A stretch of DNA of 64,000 bases from an uncultured Flavobacteriales bacterium (lineage in GTDB: Bacteria; Bacteroidota; Bacteroidia; Flavobacteriales; BACL11), in assembly GCA_905478185.1 (NCBI GenBank), contig CAJQHO010000025.1, forward strand, positions 15,499-79,498. Direction: 5' to 3'. Shown piece by piece: positions 3,275 through 57,955 of the stretch. The stretch's first letter is position 1, and the number at the start of each line of letters is the position of its first letter. Both the position numbers and the translations under genes were made by a program. Under the pieces are notes generated by a model. The model made no database searches. It was not told the DNA's origin and worked only from the letters and a program-made list of their open reading frames with translations.

Positions 3275-3907
3275 TTAGTGTTTAGCTAAATAATCAGCTA
3301 CACTTTCGTGTGTTCCTTTCATAGCGTCATCACCTTTACTCCAGTTTGCAGGACAAACTTCTCCATTTTCTTCAAAATGTTGTAATGCATCAACCATTCT
3401 TAAAGCCTCATCAACATTTCTTCCTAATGGGAAATTATTAACGATTTGATGTTGTACGATTCCATTTTTATCAATTAAAAAAAGTCCTCTGTAAGCAATC
3501 ATTGGTCCTGTTGCGCACATATTTTCATTTTCATCTAATTCATAATCTCCAGCTAATACCCCAAAGTTTGCTGAAATTGTTTTAGAAGTATCAGCAACTA
3601 AAGGATAAGTAATTCCTTTAATACCACCTTCTGATTTATCCATTTGTAACCATCCCCAATGTGATTGTTCTGTATCTGTTGAGCAAGCAACTACTTCTAC
3701 TCCTCTTGCTTCAAATTCAGCTAATTTATTTTGAAATGCAAATAATTCTGTTGGACATACGAAAGTAAAATCCATAGGGTAGAAAAAGAATAATACGGGC
3801 TTTTCCCCTACAAACTGATCTAAAGAATAATCTGCTATAATTTGACCACCTTTTATTACTGCTGATGCAGAAAATGATGGCGCTTTTTTACCTACTAATA
3901 TTGACAT
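3275..3907 (-). CDS. 2-Cys peroxiredoxin (AhpC/Prx1 family)
   Basis: FFFYPMDFTFVCPTEL peroxidatic-Cys motif and a C-terminal resolving Cys (GEVCPANW). Confidence 0.9.
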   Translation of the reverse strand: MSILVGKKAPSFSASAVIKGGQIIADYSLDQFVGEKPVLFFFYPMDFTFVCPTELFAFQNKLAEFEARGVEVVACSTDTEQSHWGWLQMDKSEGGIKGITYPLVADTSKTISANFGVLAGDYELDENENMCATGPMIAYRGLFLIDKNGIVQHQIVNNFPLGRNVDEALRMVDALQHFEENGEVCPANWSKGDDAMKGTHESVADYLAKH

Positions 3908-3939
3908 AATTTTTTATTTTTTGATTATTAAAACTCGGG

Positions 3940-3947
3940 CAAAAATA
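3940..3947 (-). promoter_or_regulatory. -7 box (TAnnTTTG) for the peroxiredoxin gene
   Basis: Minus strand TATTTTTG upstream of the ATG at 3907. Confidence 0.45.
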
Positions 3948-3967
3948 ATACAAAATAAGGAGAAACC

Positions 3968-4495
3968 TTATATTTTGGATAGAATAAAAGCAGTTCGTTC
4001 ATTAACTGTTAATTTAGGGACTTCCACTAAAGTATAACCAAAGGATTGGTAAGTAGTGAGTAAAACTTTTTCTATGTTTTTTGCAGTGATAATATCTTCT
4101 TTTCTTTCACTGTCATTTGTATAGATTTCTGTCCAAATAGGGGTATAAAAAACAGTTTTGTTGTAAGGGAATTGTTTTGCCATTTCCATGATGTCATTAT
4201 TAACCGCTAGGTTATCATGTTTTAAGTAAGCTATTACATCAATAATTCCTCTATCAAAAAAATAAGTTTTACCTTTTGGGGCATTAGTATGTTGTGCTTT
4301 CCTAAGAGCTATTACTTGCTGAGAAAAAGCAGCTAAGTTTTTCCATGGTAAAGCATCTCCACCACTTGCAATCTCTTGCGTTATTATTGTTCTAGAAATT
4401 TCCTCAGCACATGAATGACCTTCTTTTTTGAGTGCATTAATAATTGCAGTTTTACCTGTTCCAGGAGCTCCAGTTATGATGTATTTTTGATTCAC
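3968..4495 (-). CDS. AAA_28-type P-loop ATPase (NadR C-terminal-like)
   Basis: Walker A motif ITGAPGTGKTA at the N-terminus. Small size and overall pattern fit the family. Confidence 0.55.
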   Translation of the reverse strand: MNQKYIITGAPGTGKTAIINALKKEGHSCAEEISRTIITQEIASGGDALPWKNLAAFSQQVIALRKAQHTNAPKGKTYFFDRGIIDVIAYLKHDNLAVNNDIMEMAKQFPYNKTVFYTPIWTEIYTNDSERKEDIITAKNIEKVLLTTYQSFGYTLVEVPKLTVNERTAFILSKI

Positions 4496-10297: not shown

Positions 10298-13003
10298 ATG
10301 AGAAATAAAATTTTACCATTATTTTTAGGTGTATTATTGTCAGCAAACTTCAGCTTTGCTCAAAAGTGTGGAACTTATGAAGGTTCATTTGAAAATGAAA
10401 AAAATAAATTTCCAGAATTTTACCAATCTATAGAAAGTAAAAATTCAGATTTACAACAAAGTCATTTAAAAGCATTAAACAAAATGACTTCATTAAAAGT
10501 TGAGAATGGAGTTAGAATTATTCCTGTTGTTGTTCATGTTATTCATGATTTAGGAAATGAAAATATTTCTGACGTTTCAATTCAAGGTGCTTTAGATATT
10601 TTAAATGCAAATATTAATGGGCAAGGGGCTAACTTTTTAAATAAAACACCAGATATTTTTGCTGCTGTTAGAGGTGATTTAAAGGTTGAGTTTAGATTAG
10701 CAAAACTTGATCCAAACGGAAATCCCACTACAGGAATAAATAGAGTTAGGTCAACTTTGACTGATGAACCTGAACCTAGAGATGCAGTTAAATCGTTAAG
10801 TTATTGGAATTCTTATCAGTATTTAAATATTTGGACTCTTAAAAAGTTTGCTCCACAGGATGATGGAAATACACTTTTAGGTTATGCTCAGTTTCCTTGG
10901 AGCGGTTCAATGTCAACTGATGGTGTTGTTTTATTAGCGAATCAAATGGTTAGTGGTGGTACATTAACTCATGAGTGTGGACATTGGTTAGGACTAAGGC
11001 ATGTTTGGGGAGATGCAGTTTGTGGTGATGACGGAGTAAAAGACACTCCCCCTGCAAGAGAGCCTAATTTTGGAATTAATATGAATCATTTCCCATATCA
11101 TGTTGGGTTGGCTCCACCTGCAGGTCAAACTGGAGCTTGGGGGTGTATAGCAGATTCATTAAATCCTGCTGGAGAGATGTTTGTAAACTATATGGATTAT
11201 TCGAATGATGCAGATGTAACTATGTTTACTAAAGGACAAAATGCTATTATGAATGAAGTTCTTGATGGTAATTATGATGAAGAAACTCAAACTTCAGGTG
11301 TAGGTTTTAGAGAGTATATGTGGTCTAATGAAAATATATCCTTAACTGGAACAGCTGATGGCTATATGACTCCGACTTGTACGCAAGAAGCTACTTTTAA
11401 TGTTATTGGTGGATCTTCTTCAATTTGTGCAGGTGAATCAATTCTATTGAAAGGGAATAAAACTATGTTCGGTACTGGGAATGTAAGTTCTATGACATGG
11501 GATTTTGGTGATGGAAATACGGATAATTCAGGAGAGAATTTCCTTGCTCATGATTATATTTCAACAGGTTCTTATGATGTCACTTTGACTATTGAATATA
11601 ATGAGATGACTGAGGCAAGAGCTAGTTCTTTGGCTGACTTAGATATTGCAAATGCAACATCTTATGATTCTATAACTTCAACATTAATAGCTCAAGGTTC
11701 ACTGGCTGAATTAGAGGAAGTAAATGCAACGAATATTAATTTACATCTTGATGTTGATTCTTTTAGTATCGCATCTTATTTTGCGCATATCCCTGTTGAC
11801 AGCATGGTAGGGGAGCATTCTTCTGTTTATTATGGGCTTGATACATTTATGTTAATTTTTGATACTCCTAAAGGTGATGTTTTAGATACAGAATCTTCTG
11901 ATAGATTAACGAATTGTTATTCAACTTGGATAATAGATTCAGTGGTTGGATCTCAAAATACAGCTACTTTGGTGTGGGAATATGATACATTGACTTATTA
12001 TTTTGGTTTGTATTCTGCTGATGCTTATGACGCATACTTTATGGATACTCTTTTCTATAGAGGAAATGTAGAGCAAACTGTTTATATTGCTTATTTCTCA
12101 AATACATGTATTTCTACTACTACAGTTGAAAACTTCATTAAAGTAGGCTCAAATTCATCTTCAAATAATGCTGGCTCTTATTCTTATAGTTTTGAAAATG
12201 CTTCAGAATTAGATGATGACTGGGTTATTAATCAATCAACTGATGTTGCTAGTGGTTGGGAGTTTAATGCTGGTGATTTTACTGAATGGAAATGGAATTC
12301 TAGTGTTGCAGCTCATGGTGATGCTTCTATTATGATAGATGCAGAAGAATTAGGAGGAGTATTAAGATCTACAGAAATAATTTCAGGTGCTTATAACTTA
12401 TATGATTTAAATGATCCTGCAATTAAGTTTTCATGGTCAGGTGCTGCTGCAAATACTTTCCCAGTTAATGAACTAATTGTTACATATTCTGATAATTGTG
12501 GTGAGGACTGGAAATCACTTGGAACAATTAATGCTTTATTGGCTGCTAATGCAGGATTATATACAACTAGATTTGTGCCTAAACCATCTGAGTGGAATGA
12601 TACAATTATGTCAAAAAGCCAACTTAAACATGATAATATCCGCTTTAAGTTTGAATATGTAATTAGCGGAAATACAAATAATTTTTATTTAGATAATATT
12701 ATGATTGGTGAAGCTGACGCATTAATGACTGCACAAAATCAAAATAATTCAAGATTATCTGTTTATCCTAACCCAACAAATGGAAATGCAGTTATTGATA
12801 TTGAGAATCTTGCAGATGTAAATATTGAGGTTACTTTAATCAATATACTAGGATCAAAAGTAATGGAACTTTATAGTGGAGCAGTAGTAAGTAACTACCA
12901 GTCAATTGATGCGAATCTTACTAATCTTGATAAAGGAATCTACTTTGTAAGAGTTAATTCTAATGGAAATACAATTCTTACAGATAAGTTAATTCTTAAG
13001 TAA
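10298..13003 (+). CDS. secreted M43 (cytophagalysin/pappalysin-type) zinc metalloprotease with PKD, MAM-like and T9SS C-terminal domains
   Basis: HECGHWLGLRHVWGD zinc motif. PKD-like TWDFGDGNTDN...YDVTLTI. C-terminal LSVYPNPTNGNAVIDI...GIYFVRVNSNG...KLILK, a type-A-like T9SS CTD. Confidence 0.8.
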   Translation: MRNKILPLFLGVLLSANFSFAQKCGTYEGSFENEKNKFPEFYQSIESKNSDLQQSHLKALNKMTSLKVENGVRIIPVVVHVIHDLGNENISDVSIQGALDILNANINGQGANFLNKTPDIFAAVRGDLKVEFRLAKLDPNGNPTTGINRVRSTLTDEPEPRDAVKSLSYWNSYQYLNIWTLKKFAPQDDGNTLLGYAQFPWSGSMSTDGVVLLANQMVSGGTLTHECGHWLGLRHVWGDAVCGDDGVKDTPPAREPNFGINMNHFPYHVGLAPPAGQTGAWGCIADSLNPAGEMFVNYMDYSNDADVTMFTKGQNAIMNEVLDGNYDEETQTSGVGFREYMWSNENISLTGTADGYMTPTCTQEATFNVIGGSSSICAGESILLKGNKTMFGTGNVSSMTWDFGDGNTDNSGENFLAHDYISTGSYDVTLTIEYNEMTEARASSLADLDIANATSYDSITSTLIAQGSLAELEEVNATNINLHLDVDSFSIASYFAHIPVDSMVGEHSSVYYGLDTFMLIFDTPKGDVLDTESSDRLTNCYSTWIIDSVVGSQNTATLVWEYDTLTYYFGLYSADAYDAYFMDTLFYRGNVEQTVYIAYFSNTCISTTTVENFIKVGSNSSSNNAGSYSYSFENASELDDDWVINQSTDVASGWEFNAGDFTEWKWNSSVAAHGDASIMIDAEELGGVLRSTEIISGAYNLYDLNDPAIKFSWSGAAANTFPVNELIVTYSDNCGEDWKSLGTINALLAANAGLYTTRFVPKPSEWNDTIMSKSQLKHDNIRFKFEYVISGNTNNFYLDNIMIGEADALMTAQNQNNSRLSVYPNPTNGNAVIDIENLADVNIEVTLINILGSKVMELYSGAVVSNYQSIDANLTNLDKGIYFVRVNSNGNTILTDKLILK

Positions 13004-13793: not shown

Positions 13794-15242
13794 TTATTTT
13801 TCTAGTTCAGTTTTTAGTAATTGGTTTGCTAATTTAGGATCAGCTTGCCCTTTTGAAAGCTTCATTACTTCCCCCATAAACAAACCAATCAACCCTTTTT
13901 TACCTCCTTTATATTGCGCAACTTTTTCTGGGTATTTTGCAATTGCTTGAGTAATGTATTCTCCTAAAGCATCACTATCACTTTCTTGCACCCAATTATT
14001 TTCAGTAGCAATTTCTTCAGCAGTTTTATTGCTACTTAACATTGCAGGAAAAACTTTTGATGTAGCAACTGAGTTACTTATTCTTTCATCATCAACTATA
14101 CTAATAAGTGTTGCTAATTGTTCAGTTGAAATGCTGAAATCTGATATTGAAACTGCATTTTCATTAAGGTAAGATTTTACACTTCCGTTAACAAAATTGG
14201 CAGCTGATTTAAAGTTTTTTGTATGTGAGCATAGCTCATTATAATATAGTGCAATCCCTTTTTCGTCTATAAGAATATTGGTATCATAATCTGACAAACC
14301 GTATTCAGTTGTAAATTTACTGTATAGTTCTTTCGGTAAAGGTGGTAGTTGACTCTTAACTTGTGAAATATATTCTTCAGTTACAATTACGGCTTGTAAA
14401 TCTGGTTCCGGGAAGTATCTGTAGTCATTTGCTTCCTCTTTATGTCGCATGGAAATAGTAGTGTTGTTTGCAGCATTAAAACTTCTTGTTTCATGCACAA
14501 CAGTTCCTCCTTCCTCTAATATTTCAATTTGTCTGTCAATTTCAAATTCGATTGCTCTTTTTACATTTCTTGTTGAGTTCATATTCTTTACCTCAACTTT
14601 AGTTCCGAATTCTGTAGCTCCTTTAAGCATTACTGAAATATTTGCATCACATCTTAAGGATCCTTCCTCCATATTTCCATCACAAATATCTAGGTAACGA
14701 ACTAATTTTCTCACTTCATTTATGTATTGATAAGCTTCATCTGATGATCTAACATCAGGTTCAGACACAACCTCAACTAAAGGTACACCTGCTCTATTTA
14801 AATCAACTAAAGTGTGGAAAGGATCTAAATCATGAATAGATTTTCCAGCATCTTCCTCCATATGAATTCTAGTGATTTTAATGTCTTTAGGATTTCCATC
14901 TGCATCTTTAATAGTGATTACCCCACCGTTACAAATAGGTGTAGTGTCCTGTGTTATTTGATATCCTTTAGGTATATCAGCATAAAAGTAATTTTTACGA
15001 GCATATTCATTTCTTTCTCTGATATCTGAACCAACTGCTATACCTAGCCGCACAGCATATTCAATAACTTTAGCATTTGATTTGGGTAGAGTTCCAGGGT
15101 GGCCTAATGAAATTACTGATGTTTTTGTATTGGGTGTAGCCCCATAAATATTCTCATCAGACGAATATGCTTTTGTTTTTGTAAGTAATTGTGCATGGAC
15201 TTCAAGCCCAATCACAACTTCATATTTATCTCTTAAACTCAT
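13794..15242 (-). CDS. gatB: Asp-tRNA(Asn)/Glu-tRNA(Gln) amidotransferase subunit B
   Basis: YEVVIGLEVHAQL... and a full-length GatB pattern including the C-terminal YqeY-like tail. Confidence 0.95.
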   Translation of the reverse strand: MSLRDKYEVVIGLEVHAQLLTKTKAYSSDENIYGATPNTKTSVISLGHPGTLPKSNAKVIEYAVRLGIAVGSDIRERNEYARKNYFYADIPKGYQITQDTTPICNGGVITIKDADGNPKDIKITRIHMEEDAGKSIHDLDPFHTLVDLNRAGVPLVEVVSEPDVRSSDEAYQYINEVRKLVRYLDICDGNMEEGSLRCDANISVMLKGATEFGTKVEVKNMNSTRNVKRAIEFEIDRQIEILEEGGTVVHETRSFNAANNTTISMRHKEEANDYRYFPEPDLQAVIVTEEYISQVKSQLPPLPKELYSKFTTEYGLSDYDTNILIDEKGIALYYNELCSHTKNFKSAANFVNGSVKSYLNENAVSISDFSISTEQLATLISIVDDERISNSVATSKVFPAMLSSNKTAEEIATENNWVQESDSDALGEYITQAIAKYPEKVAQYKGGKKGLIGLFMGEVMKLSKGQADPKLANQLLKTELEK

Positions 15243-16585
15243 TATTCGAATAATACTTTTCCTGATTCTATTTGTTTCCCTCCTATATTAAGGCTGTAAA
15301 AATACAAACCATTCGCTAAATTTCCTCTTTTAATAGTAGTTTGATTTTTACTAATTGCAACATCCATTAATTTTGCTCCTAGGCTATTGTAAAGTGTAAA
15401 GTTATTAGCAGTATTATTAGTAATTGTAATCTGATTTGTAGCAGGAACAGGGTAGATGCTAGGTTTTAAATTTGTTTCAATTGTATGAGTTGTTCCACTA
15501 GTTAAATCAATAATATAAAGTCCTGTTTGCATATCAGAAACAATAATATTCCCAGATGATAAATAAGGGTAAACTCCCCAAGCTCCTTTATAGGACGCAT
15601 GGCTATTAGGAGCATAAGTATCATATTCCCAAGTTTGAACAGGATTACTTGGGTCAGAAATATCAAATACTCTTAAGCCATCATGGTAATAAGGAATATA
15701 GACCAAATCTCCTTTTATAATACCATTATGTGCCATTGATTGCGAATCAACTCCAGAATTAAAAGTAGCTAAAACTGAAATATTACTTAAGTCGGAAACA
15801 TCTAGTATTTTCACGTCATATCCATGATTTTCATCTTGCATAATATATAGCGTTCCATCATCATTAAGCCATCCAGAATGGTTATAGCCAGCATCTGGAT
15901 AAGATGTTAATGATGCTAATTCAACCCAAGCTGTTCCTGGTAATAAATCAAGGTAATGAAAATCTATAATTCTAAACCCATCATTTCCGCAATTAAGATA
16001 TGCTGTGTCGTTACGAACATAAGCATCATGAACATGCCCTACGGCATTGTATGAATAAATTAAAGTCGGATCTTTTGGATCAATTAGACTATATATATCC
16101 ATTGCTGAATTAGAAGCACAAGCATATAGTTTTGCTGTTGCTGTATCAATAAAAATATTATGAGATTTTGTAAATAGCGCATTGGAGTCATAAACGGTAG
16201 TTACTGAGTCAGGTAAAGTTGAAATGTCAATTATTTGTAATGTAGACGAACTTCCTTCATCACAAACTACATATAAGTACCCTTGGAAATCATGATAATC
16301 TCTATGGATTACTCCACCACCTTGGTATGCTCCTGCAACATAAGCAACTTGTGTTGCATTTGCAGGGTCAGTTACATCAAAAAAGTGGGTACCATCAGTT
16401 GATCCTATAATTGCTATTTCACTTCCGTTTACTTCCAGACCCCAACATTCGTTATAAGTATTGTTGTAAGCCCAAGAACCCATTAAAGTTGTGTCCTGCC
16501 AATTGTATAAAAGCGTTCCTGTTTGTTGTGCATTTGAGCTGATGCCAAGAAGAGCAATAGCTACTATTAAAATAAATTTATTCAT
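15242..16585 (-). CDS. secreted beta-propeller protein (choice-of-anchor B / LVIVD-repeat-like) with T9SS C-terminal domain
   Basis: Signal peptide and repeated propeller-like blades. C-terminal PSIYPVPATNQITI...GLYFYSLNIGG...GKVLFE. Its stop overlaps the gatB start (TAATG). Confidence 0.55.
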   Translation of the reverse strand: MNKFILIVAIALLGISSNAQQTGTLLYNWQDTTLMGSWAYNNTYNECWGLEVNGSEIAIIGSTDGTHFFDVTDPANATQVAYVAGAYQGGGVIHRDYHDFQGYLYVVCDEGSSSTLQIIDISTLPDSVTTVYDSNALFTKSHNIFIDTATAKLYACASNSAMDIYSLIDPKDPTLIYSYNAVGHVHDAYVRNDTAYLNCGNDGFRIIDFHYLDLLPGTAWVELASLTSYPDAGYNHSGWLNDDGTLYIMQDENHGYDVKILDVSDLSNISVLATFNSGVDSQSMAHNGIIKGDLVYIPYYHDGLRVFDISDPSNPVQTWEYDTYAPNSHASYKGAWGVYPYLSSGNIIVSDMQTGLYIIDLTSGTTHTIETNLKPSIYPVPATNQITITNNTANNFTLYNSLGAKLMDVAISKNQTTIKRGNLANGLYFYSLNIGGKQIESGKVLFE

Positions 16586-40763: not shown

Positions 40764-43700
40764 TTACTGCACAACCAACTTCCTTTGCTCAGTTATCCCC
40801 TTATGCATTAACTTTACAAAATAGATGCCTTTTGCTTGTTTGCTGAGGTCAATTTGTTGTAGTCCACCATGAATGGTTTCATTGGCAACTAGCTTTCCAA
40901 AGATAGAATACACTTCTACTTTCATAGTGTTGGCATCCGTACGGATATTAAATATTCCTTTAGTAGGGTTCGGGTAAATTAAGGTATTAGTATTGATACT
41001 CTCACCTTCTTCAATAGCTAAAATATTTTGGCCATTAATATTGATATTGTCCATATAAAAATGATTACCATAATCATTAATAGCAACAAAACGCACCATA
41101 ATTGTATCTCCATTCAGTCCCCAAGTACTTAAATTGATACTATCACTTGCCCAGCTGCCACAAGTAGGAGACCAAGCACTTCCTTCATAAGGTACAGTTT
41201 GCAAATCTGGACCGATAGCTCCATAAATAGAATCCCAAGTGCTACCGCAATCAGTAGAGATATCAATTCTTAATCCATCATCATAACCACTTGCATATCC
41301 GGAATATGCATAGTCGTAAGTTAACCAGTTTTGCGCACTTACGCCATTTCCTAAGGACACCTTGTTACTAATTAAATAAGCCTCTTCACCAGGATATTGA
41401 ATCCAGTAATGATTAACATAAGCAGTAGTTGTCGGAAGACAATCTATTCCAAAATCAACAACAGTAGAAAGCCAACTAAAAGATGGTGATTCTAATTCCC
41501 ATGCTGTAGGAGGAAAGTTGCTATTCTCAAAATCTTGAGCAAAATTTATTGAATTTGTTATTAATGATATTGAATCAGCATAAGTAATGAAATCAGTATA
41601 AGATTGTGAGCTTGTTCCAAAAGCGTCAGTTACGGTTAAAGTAACATCATACTTTCCAGGATTTGAGTAAACAACAACTGGGTCTTCCTGAGTAGATGAA
41701 GAAGGAGTCCCTCCAGGGAAAGACCATTGCCAAGAAGCACTGCTTAATCTTACAGCTGAATGATCAACAAACTTTACCGTATCATTTATACAATTAATTT
41801 CTAATCTATCTGCAGCAATTTGTGCTGATGGCGGGGTGTTTTCATAAAAATCAATTTCATAAGCGCTTCTGTTAGTTCCATTTTGTAAAATCCCCTCACG
41901 ATAATAAGGGATTAACTGTGTTGAATAGGTGTTTTTAGGCAAATTAACGTCATATATATCCCAATCAGCCATAGAATTATTTCTGTAGTAAACAGACTCC
42001 CTTGTTCCTATATACACCCCATTTCCTCCTCTTTGATGTTCAATATTAGTAACATTAATATTATCAAGAGTTGGTGTACTCCAATTTATCCAGTTTTGTC
42101 CACCATCTACCGATTTAAAAACTTCATACCCTTCAGCATCTTGCACTCCGCCATACATACTGCATCTTGCAATCCAAAGTGTATTTTCGTCATAACTACT
42201 TATAGATATATCATATGGAATCCAATCCTGACCATTGATATTTGTTGGGGTAATTTCAATCCAAGTATTTCCTGCATCTGAAGATCTGTAAATATGTTTA
42301 GTTCCCCACCATGATGGCCAAGTAGCTACATAAATTACATCAGGATTACTCCATGCTACCTCAACAGATGTTACTTTGTCATTAAAATGATAAACAGGAG
42401 AATAACTTGCACCATTATTTTTTGATAGCCAAAGAGTTGTATCTTCTCCAATATAGTTCCAATTATAACACCTTGGGTCAAATTCCATTTGGGAAGATTC
42501 TCCTGTTATATAGGATGCATTTGGTTTTTTAGCTAAAGAGAAGCCTGAAATTCCAATTGTCCTATCTCCTGAAAGTACCTTTCCACCATAGTCACTATAA
42601 GCAACTCTTGGATTTCCAAAATTTACAAAGCCTCTTATCCCATCACCACCATCAGTACATAGCCAATCATTTATGTAAGTATTCCCATCTTTAAGCATTG
42701 TTCCATTATGGTAAGTTCCACCAAGCATTACTTCTCCATCCTTAAAGCCTGCACCAAATCCCCAAAAATCAGCTCCCGCAATACCGTATTGTTTTTTGTA
42801 AATACTATCACCTGCATTATCAGAATAAAACACACCTCCATCACATGCAAACCACAGATCATTACCAAAGTAGTTGATATCATGAATATCTGCATGAACA
42901 TACCCTTTTTTATGAGGTTCACTCCATTTGGCAGGGCACGTAAAGCTGACACCATTGTCAAAAGATATCCAATGCTGAACTCCTCCAACATGAATAATGT
43001 CAGCATTTGTTGGGTTTACTGCCAAACCTAAATCATAATAATATTGTCCTCCATCATCTGATCCATCCGGTTGCCAGCCCATCATATTTATATTTACTGA
43101 ATCTGGCGGACCTGCAGGTTGAGGTCCACAACATTCAAAAGTCCAATTCTCTCCTTTATCATAACTAATATATACTCCATATAACCCACTTCCTCCATTT
43201 GCATGACCTGTTGCAAGGGCAACAATTTTATCTGGTGATGCAGGGCTAACGGCAATTTCTGTTCTTCCTTGCTCATCTCCAGTTCCAGGGTTAGGCCATC
43301 CGTTTGTAAAGTTTGTAAGTGTATTCCCTCCATTATCTGATCTGTAAAAAAGAGTACTATCTCCCGCTTGTTTTACAAAATACATTGTATTTGGATTGCT
43401 AGGATGAAACTCAATTTCTAAAAAATTACCATTCATAATCAAAGTGAAGTTATTCCCTCCATCTATTGATTTAAATAGACCTTCATCAGATGCGATAAAT
43501 AATATTTGATTATTAGTAGTTGATAGTTTTATATCCTTTGTTGAATGGGATAAAGCAGTAAATGTTGCATTCCCAATAACTGTCCAGTTTACCCCTCCAT
43601 CATATGATTTATAAATTCCTCCATTCCCACTGATGTAGATAATTTCTGGATTTGTAAAATCTATTTCAATAGCATATACTCCATTTAGAAATAAATCCTG

Positions 43701-44168
43701 CGTAATTAAATTCCAGTTATCACCTTTATCAATTGTTTTCCATGCACCAGCAGTAGCTGAACCAGCATATAATACATTTGGATTACTTGCAGCTTGTTCT
43801 ATTGTATATACATGAGCAGCACCAGGGGCATAACTTCTACTTGCAGCATCCTTATCGAAATCCCAAGGTCCTACACATTCCCATTGATTACTGCTTTTTG
43901 AAGTTTTAAGAGTTGGTTTAGCGTTTGAGAATCTACTAATACCCCTTAACCATCTTTTGTAGTACTGTGTGTGTTTATTTTTTACTAATTCATTCTTTTT
44001 ATAATAATCGGTATAGGCATTAATTACTTCTCCTTCATCAGGATTTTCTGCATACATCAATTGTGCCCAATGCGGCAAATTTTCAGCATTTGCATTGTAT
44101 TTCATTTCCACTTGCGCAACAAGTGAAAACTTGAAAGTGATAAAAAGTAGGAATAGTAATTTCTTCAT
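40764..44168 (-). CDS. large secreted BNR/sortilin(VPS10)-type beta-propeller protein with PKD, MAM-like and T9SS C-terminal domains
   Basis: Many Asp-box-like repeats (S.D.G.NW / S.D.G.TW). PKD-like WSFPGGTPSSS...YDVTLTVT. C-terminal LIYPNPTKGIFNI...GIYFVKLMHKG...KLVVQ. Confidence 0.7.
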   Translation of the reverse strand: MKKLLFLLFITFKFSLVAQVEMKYNANAENLPHWAQLMYAENPDEGEVINAYTDYYKKNELVKNKHTQYYKRWLRGISRFSNAKPTLKTSKSSNQWECVGPWDFDKDAASRSYAPGAAHVYTIEQAASNPNVLYAGSATAGAWKTIDKGDNWNLITQDLFLNGVYAIEIDFTNPEIIYISGNGGIYKSYDGGVNWTVIGNATFTALSHSTKDIKLSTTNNQILFIASDEGLFKSIDGGNNFTLIMNGNFLEIEFHPSNPNTMYFVKQAGDSTLFYRSDNGGNTLTNFTNGWPNPGTGDEQGRTEIAVSPASPDKIVALATGHANGGSGLYGVYISYDKGENWTFECCGPQPAGPPDSVNINMMGWQPDGSDDGGQYYYDLGLAVNPTNADIIHVGGVQHWISFDNGVSFTCPAKWSEPHKKGYVHADIHDINYFGNDLWFACDGGVFYSDNAGDSIYKKQYGIAGADFWGFGAGFKDGEVMLGGTYHNGTMLKDGNTYINDWLCTDGGDGIRGFVNFGNPRVAYSDYGGKVLSGDRTIGISGFSLAKKPNASYITGESSQMEFDPRCYNWNYIGEDTTLWLSKNNGASYSPVYHFNDKVTSVEVAWSNPDVIYVATWPSWWGTKHIYRSSDAGNTWIEITPTNINGQDWIPYDISISSYDENTLWIARCSMYGGVQDAEGYEVFKSVDGGQNWINWSTPTLDNINVTNIEHQRGGNGVYIGTRESVYYRNNSMADWDIYDVNLPKNTYSTQLIPYYREGILQNGTNRSAYEIDFYENTPPSAQIAADRLEINCINDTVKFVDHSAVRLSSASWQWSFPGGTPSSSTQEDPVVVYSNPGKYDVTLTVTDAFGTSSQSYTDFITYADSISLITNSINFAQDFENSNFPPTAWELESPSFSWLSTVVDFGIDCLPTTTAYVNHYWIQYPGEEAYLISNKVSLGNGVSAQNWLTYDYAYSGYASGYDDGLRIDISTDCGSTWDSIYGAIGPDLQTVPYEGSAWSPTCGSWASDSINLSTWGLNGDTIMVRFVAINDYGNHFYMDNININGQNILAIEEGESINTNTLIYPNPTKGIFNIRTDANTMKVEVYSIFGKLVANETIHGGLQQIDLSKQAKGIYFVKLMHKGITEQRKLVVQ

Positions 44169-44222: not shown

Positions 44223-45482
44223 TTATAAGCTAAAAGCTTCTTTTATTTCTTCTTGGCAGTCTATTTTTTCCCAAGTAAAAGTTTCTACTTCTATTTCTTT
44301 TTGTTTTCCGTTAACAAGGAAACTAACAGTTTTATTTTCTGATGTTCTTCCCATATGCCCGTAAGCTGCAGTTTCGGAATAAATAGGATTTTTAAGTTTT
44401 AAACGGCTAATAATTGATGCTGGTTTTAAGTTGAAACAAGGCATGTTTTTTACTATCTCAGCAATTTCTCCATCTGTCTTATTTACTTTAGAAGTTCTGT
44501 AAGTATCAATGAAAATACCCATTGGCTCAGCAACTCCAATGGCATAACTTACTTGTACTAAAATTCTGTCAGCAACACCTGCTTCTACCAAGTTTTTAGC
44601 AATATGACGAGTTGCATAAGCTGCTGAACGATCCACTTTTGATGGGTCTTTACCAGAAAATGCTCCACCACCATGAGCCCCTTTTCCACCATATGTATCT
44701 ACAATAATTTTTCTACCAGTAAGTCCAGTATCTCCATGTGGCCCTCCAATCACAAATTTTCCTGTTGGATTTACATGGTATTTTTCTGTTCCGAAAAGCG
44801 CTTTATTATCTTCTGATAATTGAATTTTAATTCTTGGAATTAATATTTCTCTAACATCTTTTTCAATTTGCTCTTGCATTGGTTTTTCATCAGCAAAATC
44901 ATCATGCTGAGTGGAAACTACAATGTCAGTTATTCGCTTAGGCGTATGGTCATCATTATATTCCAAAGTAACCTGCGATTTTGAATCAGGACGCAAGTAA
45001 GTCATTTCCTTCCCTGCTTTACGGATTGCCGCAAGTTCAATTAATATTTTATGCGAAATATCCAAAGCCAAAGGCATTAAATTCTCGGTTTCGTTTGTAG
45101 CATAACCAAACATCATTCCTTGGTCTCCTGCTCCTTGTTCTTTGTTTAATCCTTTTCCTTCAACTACTCCTTGATTAATATCTGGTGACTGTTCGTGTAT
45201 TGCTGAAATAACTCCACAACTATCTCCATCAAATTGGTATTCTGATTTATCGTATCCAATTTTTAAAATTACTTCTCTAGCAATTTTTTGAACATCAATG
45301 TAAGCTTCAGTAGTTACTTCACCTGAAAGCACTGTAAGTCCTGTAGTTACTAAGGTTTCACAAGCAACTTTTGAGTTTGGGTCTTGGGCTAAAAAATTAT
45401 CTAATAGTGCATCCGAAATCTGATCGGCTACTTTGTCTGGGTGTCCTTCTGAAACGGACTCTGATGTGAAATAATATGACAT
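44223..45482 (-). CDS. metK: S-adenosylmethionine synthase
   Basis: [55 protein letters not shown] at 45482 is preferred. Confidence 0.96.
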
Positions 45483-45551
45483 CTTTTTAAATTTTAAGTT
45501 TAACAATAATTTAATCGGACGATTTGGCGTAAAAGCGCTAAAGGAAATACT

Positions 45552-45600
45552 GTTTTTAGCATTTTTTTTAGTGGTTGCAATAGGCCAAATCTATCCACTT
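45552..45600 (-). promoter_or_regulatory. candidate pseudoknotted leader element upstream of metK (possible SAM-II/V-like aptamer, unproven)
   Basis: Minus-strand RNA AAGUGGAUAGAUUUGGCCUAUUGCAACCACUAAAAAAAAUGCUAAAAAC. It has outer stem AGUGG/CCACU and inner stem AUAG/CUAU. Loop UUUGGC can pair with downstream GCUAAA across an A8 linker. All folded by hand. Confidence 0.3.
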
Positions 45601-45607
45601 AGGTCGG

Positions 45608-45615: not shown

Positions 45616-45671
45616 TAAAATTTTTTAAAATTGTGCTTGTTTTTTAATTTTTTTGTTTTTATTTGTGCCAT

Positions 45672-45770
45672 ACTTATCAAGAAAGACGGAGGGATGGGCC
45701 CTATGATGTCTTGGCAACCTTGGAAATGCAAGGTGCCAAATCCCACTCCATAATATGGAGGAAGATGAGC
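45672..45770 (+). promoter_or_regulatory. SAM-I (S-box) riboswitch upstream of metH-metF
   Basis: CTTATCAAGAAAGACGGAGGGATGGGCCCTATGATGTCTTGGCAACC...AAGGTGCCAAATCCCACTCCATAATATGGAGGAAGATGAG matches the S-box consensus blocks. P1 is CTTATC/GATGAG. Confidence 0.9.
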
Positions 45771-45822
45771 GGAATACATAAATTTTCCCCACCCTATCTT
45801 TTTTGCTAAGTCTTATTAAAAT

Positions 45823-48800
45823 ATGAGACCTAAAATAGAACAATTACTACTGAACAGAATCCTTGTGCTTGATGGCGCAATGGGTACTATGATCCAAAGA
45901 TATACTCTTTCTGAAGAAGATTTTAGAGGAGAACAATTCAAAAATCATTCTTTTGATGTAAAAGGAAATAATGACTTGCTTTCCATCACACGCCCTGATA
46001 TTATCAAGGCAATCCATAAAGAATATTTGGATACTGGGGCTGATATTATTGAAACAAATACCTTTAGCGGAACAAGCATTGCGCAAGGGGATTATAGTTT
46101 AGAATCGGCTGTATATGAGTTAAATTTCCAATCTGCAAAAATTGCAAAGGAGGTGGCTATTGCGTGTTCAACTCCTGAAAAACCAAGATTTGTTGCTGGG
46201 GCTATTGGGCCAACCAACCGTACAGCATCTATCTCTCCTGATGTAGAAAATCCTGCATTTAGGCATATTACTTTTGATGGGCTAAAGGATGCTTATATTG
46301 AACAGGTAAATGCTTTGTTAGATGGGGGAGTAGATTTATTATTGGTAGAAACCGTATTCGATACCCTTAATTGTAAGGCTGCATTATTTGCCATTGAAGA
46401 GGTATTTGAAGCAAAAGACTTACGAGTTCCTATTATGGTTTCAGGAACAATTACGGATGAAAGTGGCAGAACACTCTCTGGACAAACGGCTGAAGCCTTC
46501 TTGAATTCTATTTCCCATATCCCACTATTGAGTGTTGGGTTTAACTGTGCTTTGGGGACAAAAGCCATGCGCCCTTATGTGAGAGAATTATCAAGAAAAG
46601 CCCCATTTTATGTGAGTGCTTACCCCAATGCGGGTTTGCCTAATGAAATGGGAGAATATGACGAAAGCCCAGAAGAAATGGGTGCTCAATTAGAAGATTT
46701 TATGCAAAGTGATTTGGTTAATATTATTGGAGGTTGTTGTGGTACAACTCCTAAGCACATTGCAGAATTTGCACGCATTGCAAATAAATATTCCCCAAGG
46801 AAAATTCCAGTACTTAAAAAGGAAATGCGCTTGAGCGGATTGGAGGCAGTTACGATTTCAACAGCAAGTAATTTTGCAAATATTGGCGAGCGTACTAATG
46901 TAATGGGTTCTCTGAAATTCAAAAGATTAATAAAAGAAGATAATCTGGAAAAAGCACTTGAAGTAGCATTGCACCAGGTAGAAGGAGGGGCACAAGCCAT
47001 TGATATTAATATGGATGATGGAATGTTGGAAGGACAGGAATGCATGACACATTTTTTAAATTTAATAGCATCAGACCCTGATATATCTAAAGTGCCAATT
47101 ATGGTAGATTCTTCTAAATGGCATATTATAGAAGCAGGACTTAAATGTATACAAGGAAAAGGAATTGTTAATTCTATATCATTAAAAGAAGGAGAAGAAG
47201 TGTTTAAACAGCATGCTAAAACCATTCTAAAATATGGTGCTGCTGTGGTTGTAATGGCTTTTGATGAAAAGGGCCAGGCAGTGGACTATAATGATAAAAT
47301 TAGAATTTGTGAAAGAGCTTATCGTATTTTAGTAGATGAGATTGGTTTTCCTGCTGAGGATATTATTTTTGATCCGAATATATTAACGGTTGCTACTGGC
47401 ATTGAAGAGCATAATAATTATGCAGTTGATTTTTTCAAGGCTACAAAATGGATAAAAGAAAATCTGCCATACGCTAAGGTAAGTGGTGGCGTGAGTAATG
47501 TGTCCTTTTCGTTCAGAGGAAATAATATTGTCCGTGAGGCTATGCATTCTGCCTTTTTATTTCATGCGATTAATAATGGCATGGATATGGGAATTGTAAA
47601 TGCAGGAATGATTGAGGTGTATCAAGATATTCCTAAATATTTACTGAAATCAGTAGAAGATGTACTATTGAATAAAGATGATGGAGCCACTGAACGCTTG
47701 GTGGATTTGGCAGAAAATATAAAGGGAGATGGAAAGCAAAGAGTTGAGGATTTATCTTGGAGAGAACAGTCGTTAGAAGGAAGATTATCTCATGCTTTGG
47801 TAAAAGGAATAGTTGCTTTTATTGAACAGGATACAGAAGAAGCTCGCTTAAAAGCAGTACGCCCTTTGGATGTGATTGAAGGTCCTTTAATGGATGGAAT
47901 GGGAATAGTAGGTGAGCTTTTTGGAGCAGGAAAAATGTTTTTACCACAAGTAGTAAAAAGTGCACGAGTAATGAAAAAAGCAGTGGCAGTACTTACTCCA
48001 TTTATTGAAAAAGAAAAAACAGCAAGTATCAAGGCAGGAAAAGTGCTTTTGGCTACTGTGAAAGGAGATGTGCATGATATCGGAAAAAATATTCTGGGTG
48101 TAGTTTTGGGCTGTAATAATTATGAAATTATTGATTTGGGAGTAATGGTTCCTGCTAATAAAATTCTGGAGGAAGCAAAAAAACAGGATGTAGATGTAAT
48201 TGGATTAAGCGGATTGATTACTCCTTCTTTGGACGAAATGATTGATGTGGCAAAGGAGATGCAAAGAAATGATTTTAAGGTGCCACTTATGATTGGTGGA
48301 GCAACAACTTCTAAGATTCATACAGCAGTAAAAATTTACGAACATTACATTAACAATACGGTTGTACATGTATTGGATGCTTCCAAAGCAGTAGGAGTGA
48401 CAAGTAAACTAATAGGAAAAGATAAAGCAAATTTCCAAATAGCTGTTGCTACTGAATACGAGACAATTAAGGAAAATTATTTGAATAGAAAATCGGATAA
48501 AGAATATGTGAGTATTGCTAGTGCAAGGGAAAATGCAGCTAAAACGGATTGGGAAAACTTAACTATTCCTACTGCAAATCAATTAGGTGTGCAGGTTTTT
48601 GATAACATTGATATAACTACCATTCGTAACTATATTGATTGGACACCTTTCTTTTTTACTTGGGAAATGCGTAAAAAATATCCAGCAATATTGGAGGATG
48701 AAAACTTTGGAGAGCAAGCAAAGCAGTTATTGGAAGATGCTAATACTATGTTGGATAATATTATTAAAAATAAATGGTTGAAGGCTAAAGCGGTAATTGG

Positions 48801-49458
48801 TATTTGGCAAGCACACTCAGTAGGAGATAATGTTCATTTATTTGAAAATGGAAAAAAGATTGCTACTTATAATTTCTTGCGTCAGCAAGGGAAAAAGGGA
48901 AAAGCAAACAGATGTTTGGCTGATTTTGTAGCACCACTTACTTCCAACAAACAAGATTATATGGGTTCTTTTGTCTGTACGGCAGGTTTGGGAATTGAAA
49001 AGCAGTTGGCAGTTTTTGAAAAAGATCATGACGACTATAATAGCATTATGTTGAAAGCTATTGCGGATAGATTAGCAGAAGCCCTTACTGAATATATGCA
49101 CGAAAAAATCCGTAAAGAAATTTGGGGTTATGCTGGAAATGAGCAGTTCAAAAATGAGGATTTAATTAAGGAAGAGTACAAAGGAATTCGCCCTGCTCCA
49201 GGCTATACTGCATGTCCTGATCATACCGAAAAGTTAAAAATATTTGAATTGTTGGATGCTGAAAAAAGTATAGGAGTAAGCCTTACAGAAAGCATGGCTA
49301 TGAGCCCGAATGCAACAGTAAGTGGTTATTATTTTGCTCATGCTGAGGCTAAATATTTTAGTGTTGGAAAAGTACAGGACGACCAAATAGCAGATTATGC
49401 AAAACGAAAAAACATGAGTGTAGCACAAGTAGAGAAATGGCTAAGGTCAAATATATAA
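45823..49458 (+). CDS. metH: cobalamin-dependent methionine synthase
   Basis: All modules are present: Hcy-binding (GGCCGTTP), pterin-binding, B12-binding (GDVHDIGKN) and the C-terminal activation domain. 1211 aa. Confidence 0.96.
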
Positions 49459-49467
49459 AATGAAATT

Positions 49468-50421
49468 ATGAAAGTAACAGAACATATTACAAACGCAAAA
49501 AAGACATTATTTTCTTTTGAGATTCTACCTCCTTTAAAAGGAACAAGCATACAGTCTATCTATAATTCCTTAGATCTGTTAATGGAGTTTAATCCTTCAT
49601 TTGTTGATGTAACTTATCATAGAGAGGAGTTTGTATATAAGAAAAGAACAGATGGATTATTGGAAAGAAGAGCGGTAAGGAAACGACCTGGGACTGTAGG
49701 GATATGTGCAGCAATAATGAATAAATATCAGGTGGATACTGTACCTCATATTATCTGTGGAGGTTTTAGTAAGGAAGAAACAGAGAATGCATTAATCGAT
49801 TTAGATTTCTTAGGAATTGATAATGTATTGGTGTTAAGGGGTGATCCTATAAAATCAGAAACTTATTTTTCAGCAGAAGAAGATGGACATAAATATGCTT
49901 CAGAATTATTAGGGCAAGTAAACGAGATGAATAATGGAATCTATTTGGATGAAGAACTAAAAAGTTCAGCTCCAACTAATTTTTGCATAGGGGTTGCTGG
50001 CTATCCTGAAAAGCATTTTGAAGCCCCCAATATTCATTCGGATATTCATTTCCTGAAAAAGAAAGTAGAAGCAGGTGCTGATTATATTGTTACACAAATG
50101 TTTTTTGACAATCAGAAGTATTTCGATTTTGTAAACTTATGCCGAGAAAATGATATTACTATTCCGATTATACCTGGAATTAAACCTATTTCTACTCAAA
50201 AGCAATTGACTTTATTGCCACAAAGGTTTCATTTGAATGTGCCAAATCCACTTGTGGATGAAGTGCTAAAATGCAAGACCAATACAGATGTTAGGCAAGT
50301 AGGAGTAGAATGGGCTATTCAGCAAACAAAAGAACTTATTGACTTTGGCGTACCTTGTATCCATTTTTATACTATGGGGAAATCGGATAATGTGCAGCAA
50401 ATAGTTGGAAGCTTTTCTTAA
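49468..50421 (+). CDS. metF: 5,10-methylenetetrahydrofolate reductase
   Basis: FSFEILPP...VDVTYH...ITQMFFD MetF pattern. Immediately downstream of metH. Confidence 0.9.
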   Translation: MKVTEHITNAKKTLFSFEILPPLKGTSIQSIYNSLDLLMEFNPSFVDVTYHREEFVYKKRTDGLLERRAVRKRPGTVGICAAIMNKYQVDTVPHIICGGFSKEETENALIDLDFLGIDNVLVLRGDPIKSETYFSAEEDGHKYASELLGQVNEMNNGIYLDEELKSSAPTNFCIGVAGYPEKHFEAPNIHSDIHFLKKKVEAGADYIVTQMFFDNQKYFDFVNLCRENDITIPIIPGIKPISTQKQLTLLPQRFHLNVPNPLVDEVLKCKTNTDVRQVGVEWAIQQTKELIDFGVPCIHFYTMGKSDNVQQIVGSFS

Positions 50422-55839: not shown

Positions 55840-55866
55840 AAAAAAGGAGCTTTTCAGCTCCTTTTA
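55838..55866. terminator. bidirectional intrinsic terminator between dtd (+) and the TonB-receptor pseudogene (-)
   Basis: AAAAAAAA-GGAGCT-TTTC-AGCTCC-TTTT. Confidence 0.7.
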
Positions 55867-55868
55867 AA

Positions 55869-57786
55869 TTAAAGTATAATTTTCACTCCAGCTCGCATCC
55901 ATCTTCCTTGTTGGGGTACATTTCCAAAATCAACATATTCTTTGTCGAATAAGTTATTGATTTCAAGATAAAGTGTACTGTTTTTAAACGCATTATAAGA
56001 AACTCGAGTTGATGCTATCCAAAATGGTAAATACTCAACTTCTAATCCTGTATTAAAGTCCGTATACCCTCCTTCTCTGTCTTGATAAGTTGCTCTCCAA
56101 TCTATTCTTAATTGATCATTAACTAATTGATTTGCTGAAATTGAAAAATTAGTTTTTAAATTATCAAGCACATAAGCTGATTGGAATCCATCAGATTTTT
56201 TATTTAACTTATTTGAAGCATAGTTTACTCCTAAATTGTTTACAGGAAGGTTAGAGTTAAACAACTTGTTGATATTGATTTTTGAATTAATTTCATATCC
56301 TTTAGTTGTAAGTTGATTTAAGTTTTGAGTTCTCCAGATACTGTCTCCTTCAGCTAATATCCAGTCAATCATATTTGATCCTTCTCTTTGGTATAAAGTA
56401 AAAGTTGTTTTGTGATAATTGGCTGTCCACTTTACTCCAATCTCCTTGTTAGTTGAGTGTTCTGATTTTAAATATTCATTTCCCTGATTTGTTGGTGATG
56501 CATAATAAAGCTCAGTATAGTTTGGTGTTCTCATTGATTTATTAGAAGATGCAAATAATTTAATGTCATCATTTATATTGTAAGAGATGTCAATTCCCGG
56601 GAAATATTCATTCCCATATTCTGAGTCAATATTCATCATAACCCCTACTGATATGCTAAGATTTTCAATGGTTAAATTCTTTTCAGCAAATAAGTTTGTT
56701 GTTGTTCTTGTTTGTCCTTTTGTAAGTATTTAGGCTGTCAATTTCAATAGGGTTTTCTAAGTCTTCCCCTAATCTATTACTGATTATTTTATCAGTTCTA
56801 ATTTCCATTCCAATGACATTAGAGCCATTTTTTGTTTTTTGAACTGCATTAAAATCCATTCCATAAACATTTGTTTCATGGAAATTATGATACCAAGATG
56901 GATGATTTCTGAATAAAATAAACTCATCATTGTGTTTTTTCCAATACAATTTGTTCTCTAATGAAATAGTTCCTTCTTTCTTGAATTGTAAAGATGAAAA
57001 AGTAGTTTTAGTTTTTTCAAATTGTGTTGGATATTTTGGTGTGTAGAAGGTATAAGCTCCAAATTCTTAATCGGTATATCCTATATTGAAAAGAGCTTTT
57101 ATTCCTGCAATATTTCCGCTTGCTTGGTAATAGTAATTTTTAATTTTATAATCTACTTCCATAGTAGTTGTATCTCTATCTTTATGGTAGATAGGAAATC
57201 CATCACTTCTTTTTTGATTAATAGAAATATTGTGATTGTTGTTAGATGTTTTTAAAGCATAGTTGATTTCAGCTGATTTAAATCCGTTTTGACCGCTACT
57301 TAAAGTTACTGAAGAACTCCCTTCTTTCTTAGTAATAATATTGATAGCTCCTGTGTAGGCATAGTTCCCAAAAATTCGTGTAGCTCCACCAGTAATTACT
57401 TCAATCCTTTCTATTTGCTCCAAGCTTACAGGTAGATCCATAGTATGATGCCCTGTTTGAGGGTCATTTAATTTGATTCCGTTTAACATTACAAGTACTT
57501 GTTCGAATGTTCCACCTCTCATACTTATGTCTGCTTGCACTCCTTGCCCTCCTCTTTGTCTTACATCTACATTTATTGCGTACTCTAATAAATCTTCAAT
57601 AGTTTGAACTGGAGCATTTTGTATTTCTTCTAAACTGATTATTTGCACATTAGATGTGTTTTCAGTTGATGATGCTCTGTTTGCTGAAACTACAACTTCA
57701 TCTAATTTTTTATTTACTGTGTTTTGTGCATTTACAAAAGTTGTACTAATAACAATTGCAAAAAGTGTTCTGATTACTTTTTTCAT
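55869..57786 (-). pseudogene. TonB-dependent outer-membrane receptor, disrupted (1 in-frame TAA + 1 frameshift); TPP-riboswitch controlled, so a likely thiamine-related receptor
   Basis: Three track ORFs (57067..57786 plug domain, 56683..56949, 55869..56639) form one receptor. The first two are in the same frame, separated only by a TAA at 57067-57069 (..GYTD*EFGAYTFYTP..). The third frame takes over near the run cctttt at 56716-56721 (..LNTYK|GQTRTTTNLFAEKNLTIENL..). Confidence 0.8.
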
Positions 57787-57837
57787 TTTGGTTTTTTTAA
57801 ATTATAAATAGGTGAGAGCAGAATAGAAAGTTCTTTG

Positions 57838-57914
57838 TCATTTTCCCTAAAATGAATTACCACTTCAGGTTCCATGGGTTTGTTCTCAGCCGTATTGCAG
57901 CACCCCAGAAATTT
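57838..57914 (-). promoter_or_regulatory. TPP (THI-box) riboswitch
   Basis: Minus strand CUGGGGUGCUGCAAUACGGCUGAGAACAAACCCAUGGAACCUGAAGUGGUAAUUCAUUUUAGGGAAAAUG contains the conserved blocks GGGGUGC, GCUGAGA, ACCC, AACCUGA, GGUAAU and UAGGGAA in the canonical order. Confidence 0.85.
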
Positions 57915-57917
57915 TGG

Positions 57918-57925
57918 CAAATATA
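57918..57925 (-). promoter_or_regulatory. -7 box (TAnnTTTG) driving the TPP riboswitch and receptor transcript
   Basis: Minus strand TATATTTG, a few nt upstream of the riboswitch P1 region. Confidence 0.5.
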
Positions 57926-57955
57926 TAATTATCTAGAATAATTATATATAAATAA

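Follow-up and report, generated by a model that had tools for sequence, protein, structure and literature searches.

Does a sensor RNA for thiamine pyrophosphate (TPP) still stand in working order in front of an outer-membrane receptor gene that has been broken twice? The question is raised by a minus-strand locus near the end of a 64,000-nucleotide stretch of an uncultured Flavobacteriales bacterium (contig CAJQHO010000025.1, positions 15,499 to 79,498), here called the window. A preliminary description of this DNA reported a THI-box-type leader preceded by a promoter box, a gene for a TonB-dependent receptor that is interrupted by an in-frame TAA and continues at its C-terminal end in another frame, and no adjacent thiamine partner gene. 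That outline holds: the leader is TPP-derived by its alignment, the gene is a genuine pseudogene with the reading frames as described, a TAtaTTTG box lies at 57925-57918, and a thiamine partner gene is missing from the entire 64 kb as well as from the flanks. Taken as a whole, the locus is probably best explained as a receptor pseudogene of recent origin that is polymorphic and stands behind a non-canonical TPP-type aptamer, in a member of the marine Flavobacteriales whose closest named relatives are metagenome-assembled genomes of the 'Cryomorphaceae BACL11' type. The elements on which the argument turns are as follows.

57786-55869, minus strand: the whole coding part of the TonB-dependent receptor pseudogene, with Plug and barrel Pfam domains after conceptual repair.
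57918..57925, minus strand: -7 promoter box TAtaTTTG (TAnnTTTG), of Bacteroidota type, read from the sequence.
57827..57917, minus strand: non-canonical aptamer derived from a TPP riboswitch, from the RF00059 alignment (model 1-105).
57846..57869, minus strand: P4/P5 arm, a continuous 9-bp helix in the cmscan alignment.
57811..57834, minus strand: candidate expression platform, a hairpin and a C-rich block.
57067..57786, minus strand: pseudogene fragment 1, 239 codons by open reading frame (ORF), ending at the premature TAA at 57067-57069.
56721..56724, minus strand: junction of a 2-bp deletion in an (AC)2 repeat, from DNA alignment with relatives.
55869..56720, minus strand: pseudogene fragment 3, the C-terminal 283 barrel codons and the stop, in the +1 frame relative to the start codon.
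55842..55865, minus strand: intrinsic terminator, a 10-bp stem and a T run, directly 3′ of the stop codon.

From the TAtaTTTG box at 57925-57918 to the terminator at 55865-55842, which is graded strong, the locus is one monocistronic transcription unit. It comprises a promoter, a leader RNA, a TonB-dependent outer-membrane receptor gene of BtuB size, and a terminator.

Past the TAA at 57067-57069 (GYTD*EFGAY), frame 1 stays open until a stop at 56683 that the frameshift creates; the C-terminal 284 codons, stop included, are in the +1 frame from about 56720. The nature of the two lesions was read from an alignment of the window with four intact alleles (L009, L010, L037, and L038) and two alleles with the deletion only (L035 and L036); L labels denote related loci, of which about 110 were collected, and P labels denote receptor proteins. 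The nonsense lesion is a change of AAA (Lys240) to TAA, and all six relatives have AAA at the site. The frameshift is a 2-bp deletion in the (AC)2 repeat, TTACACAAAAGG to TTACAAAAGG (also written TACACAAAA to TACAAAA), which removes Thr356 and shifts the frame; intact proteins read NTYTKGQTR at this point. The preliminary description had called this a homopolymer frameshift, but the A4 run at 56718-56721 has the same length in the four intact relatives, and the real change is the 2-bp loss from the ACAC repeat. The ancestral protein has 639 residues, with an extra Thr (NTYTKGQ), not 638.

The alleles also show the order of events. L035 and L036, which come from other samples and encode the 367-residue protein P0089, have the deletion and keep AAA, and P0138 and P0140 are further 367-residue forms. 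Since alleles with the deletion alone retain AAA, the deletion at codon 355/356 came first and Lys240 to TAA second in the window strain, where the output of any switch is now moot. The private changes of the deletion lineage are K559Q and one synonymous substitution, followed on the window branch by I183N and K240*. Divergence from the nearest intact alleles in the sample is about 1%. By these sequence counts the pseudogene is young, and the substitutions on its lineage are too few for a test of dN/dS. Judged from its reading frames, the receptor gene of the window strain is dead and makes at most a 239-residue plug fragment.

Both lesions recur elsewhere. The segment 55801-58000 is found in eight contigs from independent projects and assemblers (megahit and SPAdes assemblies at ENA, and assemblies of JGI and Logan) at 2199-2200 of 2200 bases (99.95-100%), both lesions included. 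One more contig, L104, has the same lesions, which brings the count to at least nine independent metagenome assemblies, and the exact 239-residue product is called on 15-20 contigs at NCBI, JGI, ENA, and Logan. The window and most contigs with the broken allele differ only at 57930, where the window, L004, L035, and L036 have A and L001-L003 and L005-L008 have C. This position is 5 nt upstream of the -7 box. Intact 639-residue alleles that are 96-99% identical (P0001, L009, L010, L037, and L039-L048) dominate the cluster of 197 sequences, so that intact, deletion-only, and deletion-plus-stop alleles coexist in nature. By these comparisons neither lesion is an artefact; both are recent and polymorphic in the wild, where intact alleles predominate. 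Of the causes first proposed for the breaks, strain heterogeneity or recent decay agrees with the coexisting alleles, and assembly error is excluded.

What has been lost is a TonB-dependent receptor. The repaired protein scores 66.5 bits against Plug (PF07715, cutoff 23.9) and 104 bits against the 22-strand barrel family (PF00593, cutoff 27), and the Pfam barrel domain, TonB_dep_Rec_b-barrel, covers residues 165-612. The N-terminus, read by eye, has a signal peptide (MKKVIRTLFAIVISTTFVNA, then QN) followed by LDEVVVSANR. The segment DEVVVSANR is similar to a TonB box when set beside DTLVVTANR, which we take to be the TonB box of BtuB. Fragment 1, with its 239 residues, thus holds the signal peptide, the TonB-box-like DEVVVSANR, the plug domain, and the start of the barrel. 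The uninterrupted frame that a functional receptor needs is broken by the TAA at codon 240 and again by the deletion at codon 355/356. The best-scoring named family is BtuB, the vitamin B12 receptor, at 132.9 for TIGR01779 (cutoff 599.7) and 107.4 for NF007926 (cutoff 836); the sizes and TonB boxes are similar, and JGI labels relatives ‘vitamin B12 transporter’. The match to known structures (PDB 1NQE and others) is confined to the plug, at an E value of about 1e-12. The BtuB identity was rejected because the scores fall far under the NCBIfam cutoffs and because a cobalamin riboswitch was found neither in the window nor in the ortholog loci, which made up 9 of 13 loci scanned.

The leader was compared with the TPP model of Rfam, RF00059. 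It aligns over the full model (1-105) with 44.7 bits, at E values of 7.9e-8 in a 301-nt scan and 1.7e-5 for the whole window; the gathering score of the model is 54.3 bits. A scan at gathering thresholds finds two S-adenosylmethionine (SAM) riboswitches, SAM-I and SAM-II, and one tRNA in the window and no TPP riboswitch, and at that threshold the 9 ortholog loci, of 13 loci scanned, have none either. In a permissive scan of the 64 kb, both strands and 4227 families, TPP is the only sub-threshold Rfam match with an E value of 0.05 or less. For this reason the similarity is regarded as above chance, and by homology the leader is descended from a TPP riboswitch.

We propose that this descent kept the pyrimidine-sensing half and lost the internal loop that binds pyrophosphate. 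The first half is canonical, with the P2 pairing of GGGG and ACCC and the J3-2 T-loop UGAGA in place (GGGGUGC at 57906-57900, CUGAGA at 57889-57884, and ACCC at 57879-57876). P3a is a gap in the model alignment; it is a stem of variable length (bioRxiv 10.1101/2022.01.04.474978). In the second half the J4-5/J5-4 internal loop is gone. Where the model has CCggCGuAGGGA, the leader has CAUUU-UAGGGA, and P4/P5 becomes an uninterrupted helix, CCUGAAGUG with CAUUUUAGG, closed by the loop GUAAUU. Across ten relatives 96.3% of the cells of this arm pair, against 95.5% in P2, 79% in P3, and 85% of all cells, and an A-U pair stands at the former GCG bulge in 9/9 distinct sequences. The canonical aptamer (E. 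coli thiM; RF00059) shares the P2/P3/J3-2 half and the CCUG...UAGGGA frame of P4, but its internal loop, G60-A61-U62 / C77-G78-U79, is here reduced to a paired A-U, P3a is missing, and P1 has 2-4 A-U pairs. In thiM, C77 and G78 of the ‘GCG’ motif are highly conserved and bind pyrophosphate and its metal ions (PMC3764141, PMC7824784, bioRxiv 10.1101/2022.01.04.474978).

These results qualify the earlier view of the leader as an intact-looking sensor with every conserved block. The six blocks that were listed are there, at 57843-57906, and the covariance-model check proposed for them does return a significant full-length match. What fails is the completeness: the J5-4 ‘GCG’ is missing, P1 is down to 2/5 pairs, the match stays below the gathering score, and without counterparts of C77 and G78 the word intact overstates the case.

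Is such a variant aptamer maintained? An identical GCG-less P4/P5 aptamer precedes receptor alleles down to 69-74% protein identity (L054, L055, L058, L062, L066, and L103). In L055 and L066, compared with the window, the upstream gene is 67% and the receptor about 75% identical, with 0.43-0.48 at four-fold degenerate sites, and the aptamer retains 76/81 positions. Because this non-coding segment is far better conserved than the coding sequence on both of its sides, the comparison argues for purifying selection on the variant aptamer. Intact alleles have exactly the aptamer of the window; the sensor of the window would be undamaged because its gene died too recently.

In other relatives the sensor itself has gone. 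L009/L051/L098, L050, and L052 have an intact receptor (96-99%) and an upstream gene 93-96% identical to that of the window, and have lost the TPP blocks: a sharply bounded segment of ~220-250 nt (window ~58000-57780) is only 56-77% identical, and L009, L050, and L052 have no TPP match at an E value of 10 or less. It appears from these boundaries that the leader was exchanged as a cassette rather than decaying in place. In L009 the swapped segment is 3790-4000; besides promoter and leader it includes the 3′ end of the C92 peptidase gene, and both flanks are 92-100% identical. Leaders that are more decayed or shortened, and still significantly homologous, are found in L059, L113, L107/L056, and L091, and L045, L058, L054, and L048 each have one change in a conserved block before an intact gene. 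The locus is therefore met in three states: sensor with gene, which is the commonest, decayed sensor with gene, and sensor with broken gene.

TAnnTTTG is the consensus of Bacteroidetes promoters, and the TAtaTTTG box is present in 25/26 distinct homologous leaders, decayed ones included, the exception being L050 with TACATTTA; related TAnnTTT(G/A) boxes precede many orthologs that have no such leader. No -33 TTG was found at the promoter. The transcript should start a few bases past the -7 box, which places the aptamer at the very 5′ end of the mRNA. Between aptamer and start codon lie a small hairpin, AGAAC..UUCU at 57834-57820, and the leader's only C-rich block, GCUCUCACC at 57819-57811 (GC(A/U)CUCCCC in relatives). 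Both are conserved and are also kept in decayed leaders. The C-rich block is complementary to GGGGUGC of the aptamer, and the alternative pairing occurs in minimum-free-energy folds of relatives. Hairpin and C-rich block may serve as the expression platform. L043, L046, and L048 lack 21 nt by a natural deletion ~20 nt before the ATG. The C-rich block and the hairpin's 3′ half are lost with it, whereas aptamer and gene are intact, a ready-made expression-platform mutant. UUCAUUUU(A)GG also looks complementary to the start region, (C)CAAAAUGAA, but was not taken as a regulatory pairing: A-rich MKK starts make a chance match likely, and the pairing would imply an ON switch.

Our proposal is as follows. 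The leader would most likely still be a sensor of the thiamine family that lowers receptor expression when its ligand is abundant. Without ligand, the C-rich block would pair with GGGGUGC and disrupt the aptamer; ligand binding would lock GGGGUGC into P2/P3 and free the C-rich block. The output would fall on translation or transcript fate rather than on a classical terminator. In Bacteroides thetaiotaomicron, TPP riboswitches near the start codons of transporter genes act on translation and not on the mRNA level (bioRxiv 10.1101/867226).

Several observations weigh against a working thiamine sensor that governs a thiamine receptor. Ten relatives were scored with RF00059 (51.7, 51.2, 45.9, 45.8, 45.8, 44.7, 39.9, 39.4, and 30.1 bits), and no member of the aptamer family reaches the gathering score (30-52 against 54.3). 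P1 is weak, with 2/5 pairs in the window, 4/5 in L055 and L062, all of them A-U, and 60% of cells pairing. The bases equivalent to C77/G78, which contact pyrophosphate, are absent from the sequence, which makes TPP a putative ligand only. No pair shows changes on both sides: the covariation observed equals that of shuffles, the family being too shallow, and it is homology to RF00059 that carries the structural claim. The fold of the leader has no thermodynamic signal relative to shuffles (z = 0.01). Neither a terminator in the leader nor a convincing sequestering helix over the start codon was found, the latter in both constrained and unconstrained folds. Recombination at a mosaic locus is in principle another way to account for the conserved leader of L055 and L066. 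In close relatives the gene stayed intact while the leader decayed or was replaced, and most orthologs at 50-72% identity have short leaders in which no homology to this one was detected; the 52-65-nt leaders of most 629-residue orthologs, tried as homologues of the aptamer's 5′ half, looked plausible by eye and were not significant against shuffles. It follows from decay and absence in these intact relatives and deeper orthologs that the regulation is dispensable and that the tie of the receptor family to thiamine is weak. The leader is the only link between this receptor and thiamine, and no source names any relative a thiamine receptor. Since that sole link is itself decayed or replaced in relatives whose genes are intact, the decay of thiamine-salvage capacity suggested in the preliminary description is unsupported.

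The most serious rival takes these points at face value: the leader would be a riboswitch fossil without ligand binding, conserved for its promoter-proximal sequence, for mRNA stability, or for translation efficiency. The missing GCG motif and the weak P1 speak for it, as does the tolerance of close relatives with intact genes for heavy decay, for the 21-nt platform deletion, or for single changes in CUGAGA or AGGGA. There is also the precedent of conserved-looking diatom TPP aptamers that proved unresponsive (bioRxiv 10.1101/2022.01.04.474978). However, the positions conserved across divergent backgrounds are precisely the blocks of the TPP core, and lineages that lose these blocks drift fast to about 70% identity, as expected under selection for the fold. 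We regard the fossil as unlikely, although it is the alternative that fares best.

A somewhat less likely rival concerns the loss of the gene and not the leader. The receptor may have been lost adaptively, as a phage or toxin target or as a cost when thiamine is not limiting, with fluctuating selection keeping knock-outs, divergent alleles, and deregulated leaders. Independent lesions in near-identical alleles fit this idea, as follows. L053 has an additional G near codon 77 (nt ~230), L049 has Ser502 changed to TAA, L085 is disrupted after about codon 419, and L103 is frameshifted at ~codon 490, all four behind a TPP-type leader. Further points in its favor are the sharply bounded leader swap, the chimeric L038, and the two receptor allele classes, of 639 and 629 residues (about 72% amino acid and 75% DNA identity), that stand behind the same leader in L054, L062, and L103. 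The upstream gene is 99% identical across the two classes; L038 is window-like in its first two thirds and 75% identical in its last third; and downstream, dtd and rsgA are equally mosaic (76-99%). So dynamic a locus would fit fluctuating selection on an exposed receptor. Some of the lesions are less secure, however, L049 having about 1.5x coverage and L085 being possibly chimeric; intact alleles predominate, there is no phage or toxin evidence, and the changes are too few for dN/dS. By default, the loss is put down to neutral decay of an uptake gene that the cell can spare.

A more speculative thought, and a less probable one than either rival, is that the clade-specific aptamer, rather than being a degraded TPP switch, is a variant of shifted specificity, with a pyrimidine pocket and no dependence on pyrophosphate, that senses a vitamer without pyrophosphate, such as thiamine, hydroxymethylpyrimidine (HMP), or aminomethylpyrimidine (AmMP), and controls an outer-membrane vitamer receptor of polymorphic expression state. 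The variant riboswitches published in 2017 and by Atilho et al. in 2019, as given in PMC6478431, are like the present one in that the parent fold is kept, a few changes fall exactly at ligand-contacting positions, and the changes are conserved in a clade. They differ in that the clade here is narrow and without covariation and the variant readily decays in sister lineages. If the thought were correct, wild marine Flavobacteriales would maintain a polymorphism in the expression state of the receptor, which may be regulated, deregulated through replacement of the leader, or knocked out.

Two further rivals deny the pseudogene, and both are highly improbable. Sequencing or assembly artefacts in a gene that is intact in the cell could be suspected, as the deletion lies in a short repeat beside an A run, an error-prone context, and the window is probably from a metagenome-derived assembly; but the same two lesions recur in the nine or more contigs from different assemblers and projects, two further samples hold the intermediate allele, the nonsense change is a substitution and not an indel, and no other of the ~58 ORFs of at least 110 amino acids in the window is apparently interrupted. 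Recoding, by which read-through or reassignment of TAA and a +1 ribosomal frameshift at AAA-AGG keep expression, has in its favor that a +1 slip of tRNA-Lys on A-AAA-GG restores the frame and gives the 638-residue repair of the preliminary description, but TAA is the main stop in the window (the normal stop of 47/57 ORFs), for which stop-codon reassignment was rejected, AGG makes up 14% of Arg codons, AAA-AGG occurs 4 times inside ordinary genes, and intact alleles with a sense codon and no shift mark these features as new lesions rather than conserved signals.

Upstream of the pseudogene and its leader are atpDC and a C92 peptidase gene, and downstream are dtd and rsgA. No thiamine gene is adjacent to the receptor, no thiamine-related Pfam family occurs in the whole 64 kb, and linkage to pnuT, tnr3, or tenA was found neither in the neighborhood nor in the window. 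In the related loci L039, L043, L045, L048, L050, L052, L055, L058, L059, L062, and L066, sub-threshold Rfam matches named ‘Histone3 stem-loop’, STnc40, and BSnc120 (~3350-3450) correspond to the terminator hairpin of the receptor gene and are spurious. Elsewhere in the window, a divergent intergenic region holds two SAM riboswitch classes back to back, both above the Rfam gathering score: a SAM-II long-loop (58.5 bits) at 45545-45604 on the minus strand, leading to metK (44223-45506, minus), and a SAM-I (83.8 bits) at 45671-45771 on the plus strand, leading to the B12-dependent metH and to metF (45823-50421, plus). PorV and three large proteins with Por_Secre_tail sorting domains of type IX secretion, of which two have PKD domains and one has an M43 peptidase domain, are encoded at 1073-2254, 10298-13003, 15242-16585, and 40764-44168, a set that fits the surface-protein repertoire of Bacteroidota.

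TonB receptors under TPP-riboswitch control are already known, as OMthi and omr1. OMthi (BT2390) of B. thetaiotaomicron, for which there is genetic evidence of thiamine uptake (PMC5613172), is like the present gene in being a Bacteroidota TonB-dependent receptor with a THI-box leader near the start codon, and it is monocistronic in B. thetaiotaomicron (PMC5613172; bioRxiv 10.1101/867226). It differs in that BT2390 is 2,225 bp (about 741 residues, against 639 here), and the present gene has no pnuT/tnr3 nearby, has a sub-threshold aptamer without GCG, and is a pseudogene. The nearest Bacteroidales homologues found were considered as links to OMthi and rejected, being only 27-29% identical and having no TPP element or THI box. 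The putative TonB-dependent vitamin B1 receptor of marine bacterioplankton is omr1, whose specificity is described as unclear (PMC12442306); it occurs with a nearby thiamine diphosphate (TDP) riboswitch in SAR86 and in two clusters of Flavobacteriales metagenome-assembled genomes (PMC10881298). The omr1 riboswitches were called through RF00059 and Infernal, whereas the aptamer family described here lies under the gathering score and would probably be missed in that way. The upstream THI box that OMthi and omr1 have in common may correspond in the present family to the TPP-derived, GCG-less, sub-threshold aptamer, which is decayed or undetected before many orthologs.

The pseudogene itself is ordinary, mostly a strain-level gene loss. 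What is worth keeping is, first, a TPP-derived aptamer that is conserved without the pyrophosphate-binding bases and lies under the Rfam threshold. In marine metagenomes, the standard way to find vitamin B1 transporters is by their TPP riboswitches, and since this leader never reaches that threshold, marker surveys would probably miss the receptor family. Since the leader is conserved though without the bases that contact pyrophosphate, it is a cheap candidate for a test of altered specificity. The second is a natural series in which the riboswitch and gene halves erode independently. Near-identical genomes carry intact, leader-decayed, frameshifted, or frameshifted-plus-nonsense alleles, a riboswitch–gene pair separating in the wild, and this mix of alleles bears on strain variation in B1 auxotrophy and uptake traits.

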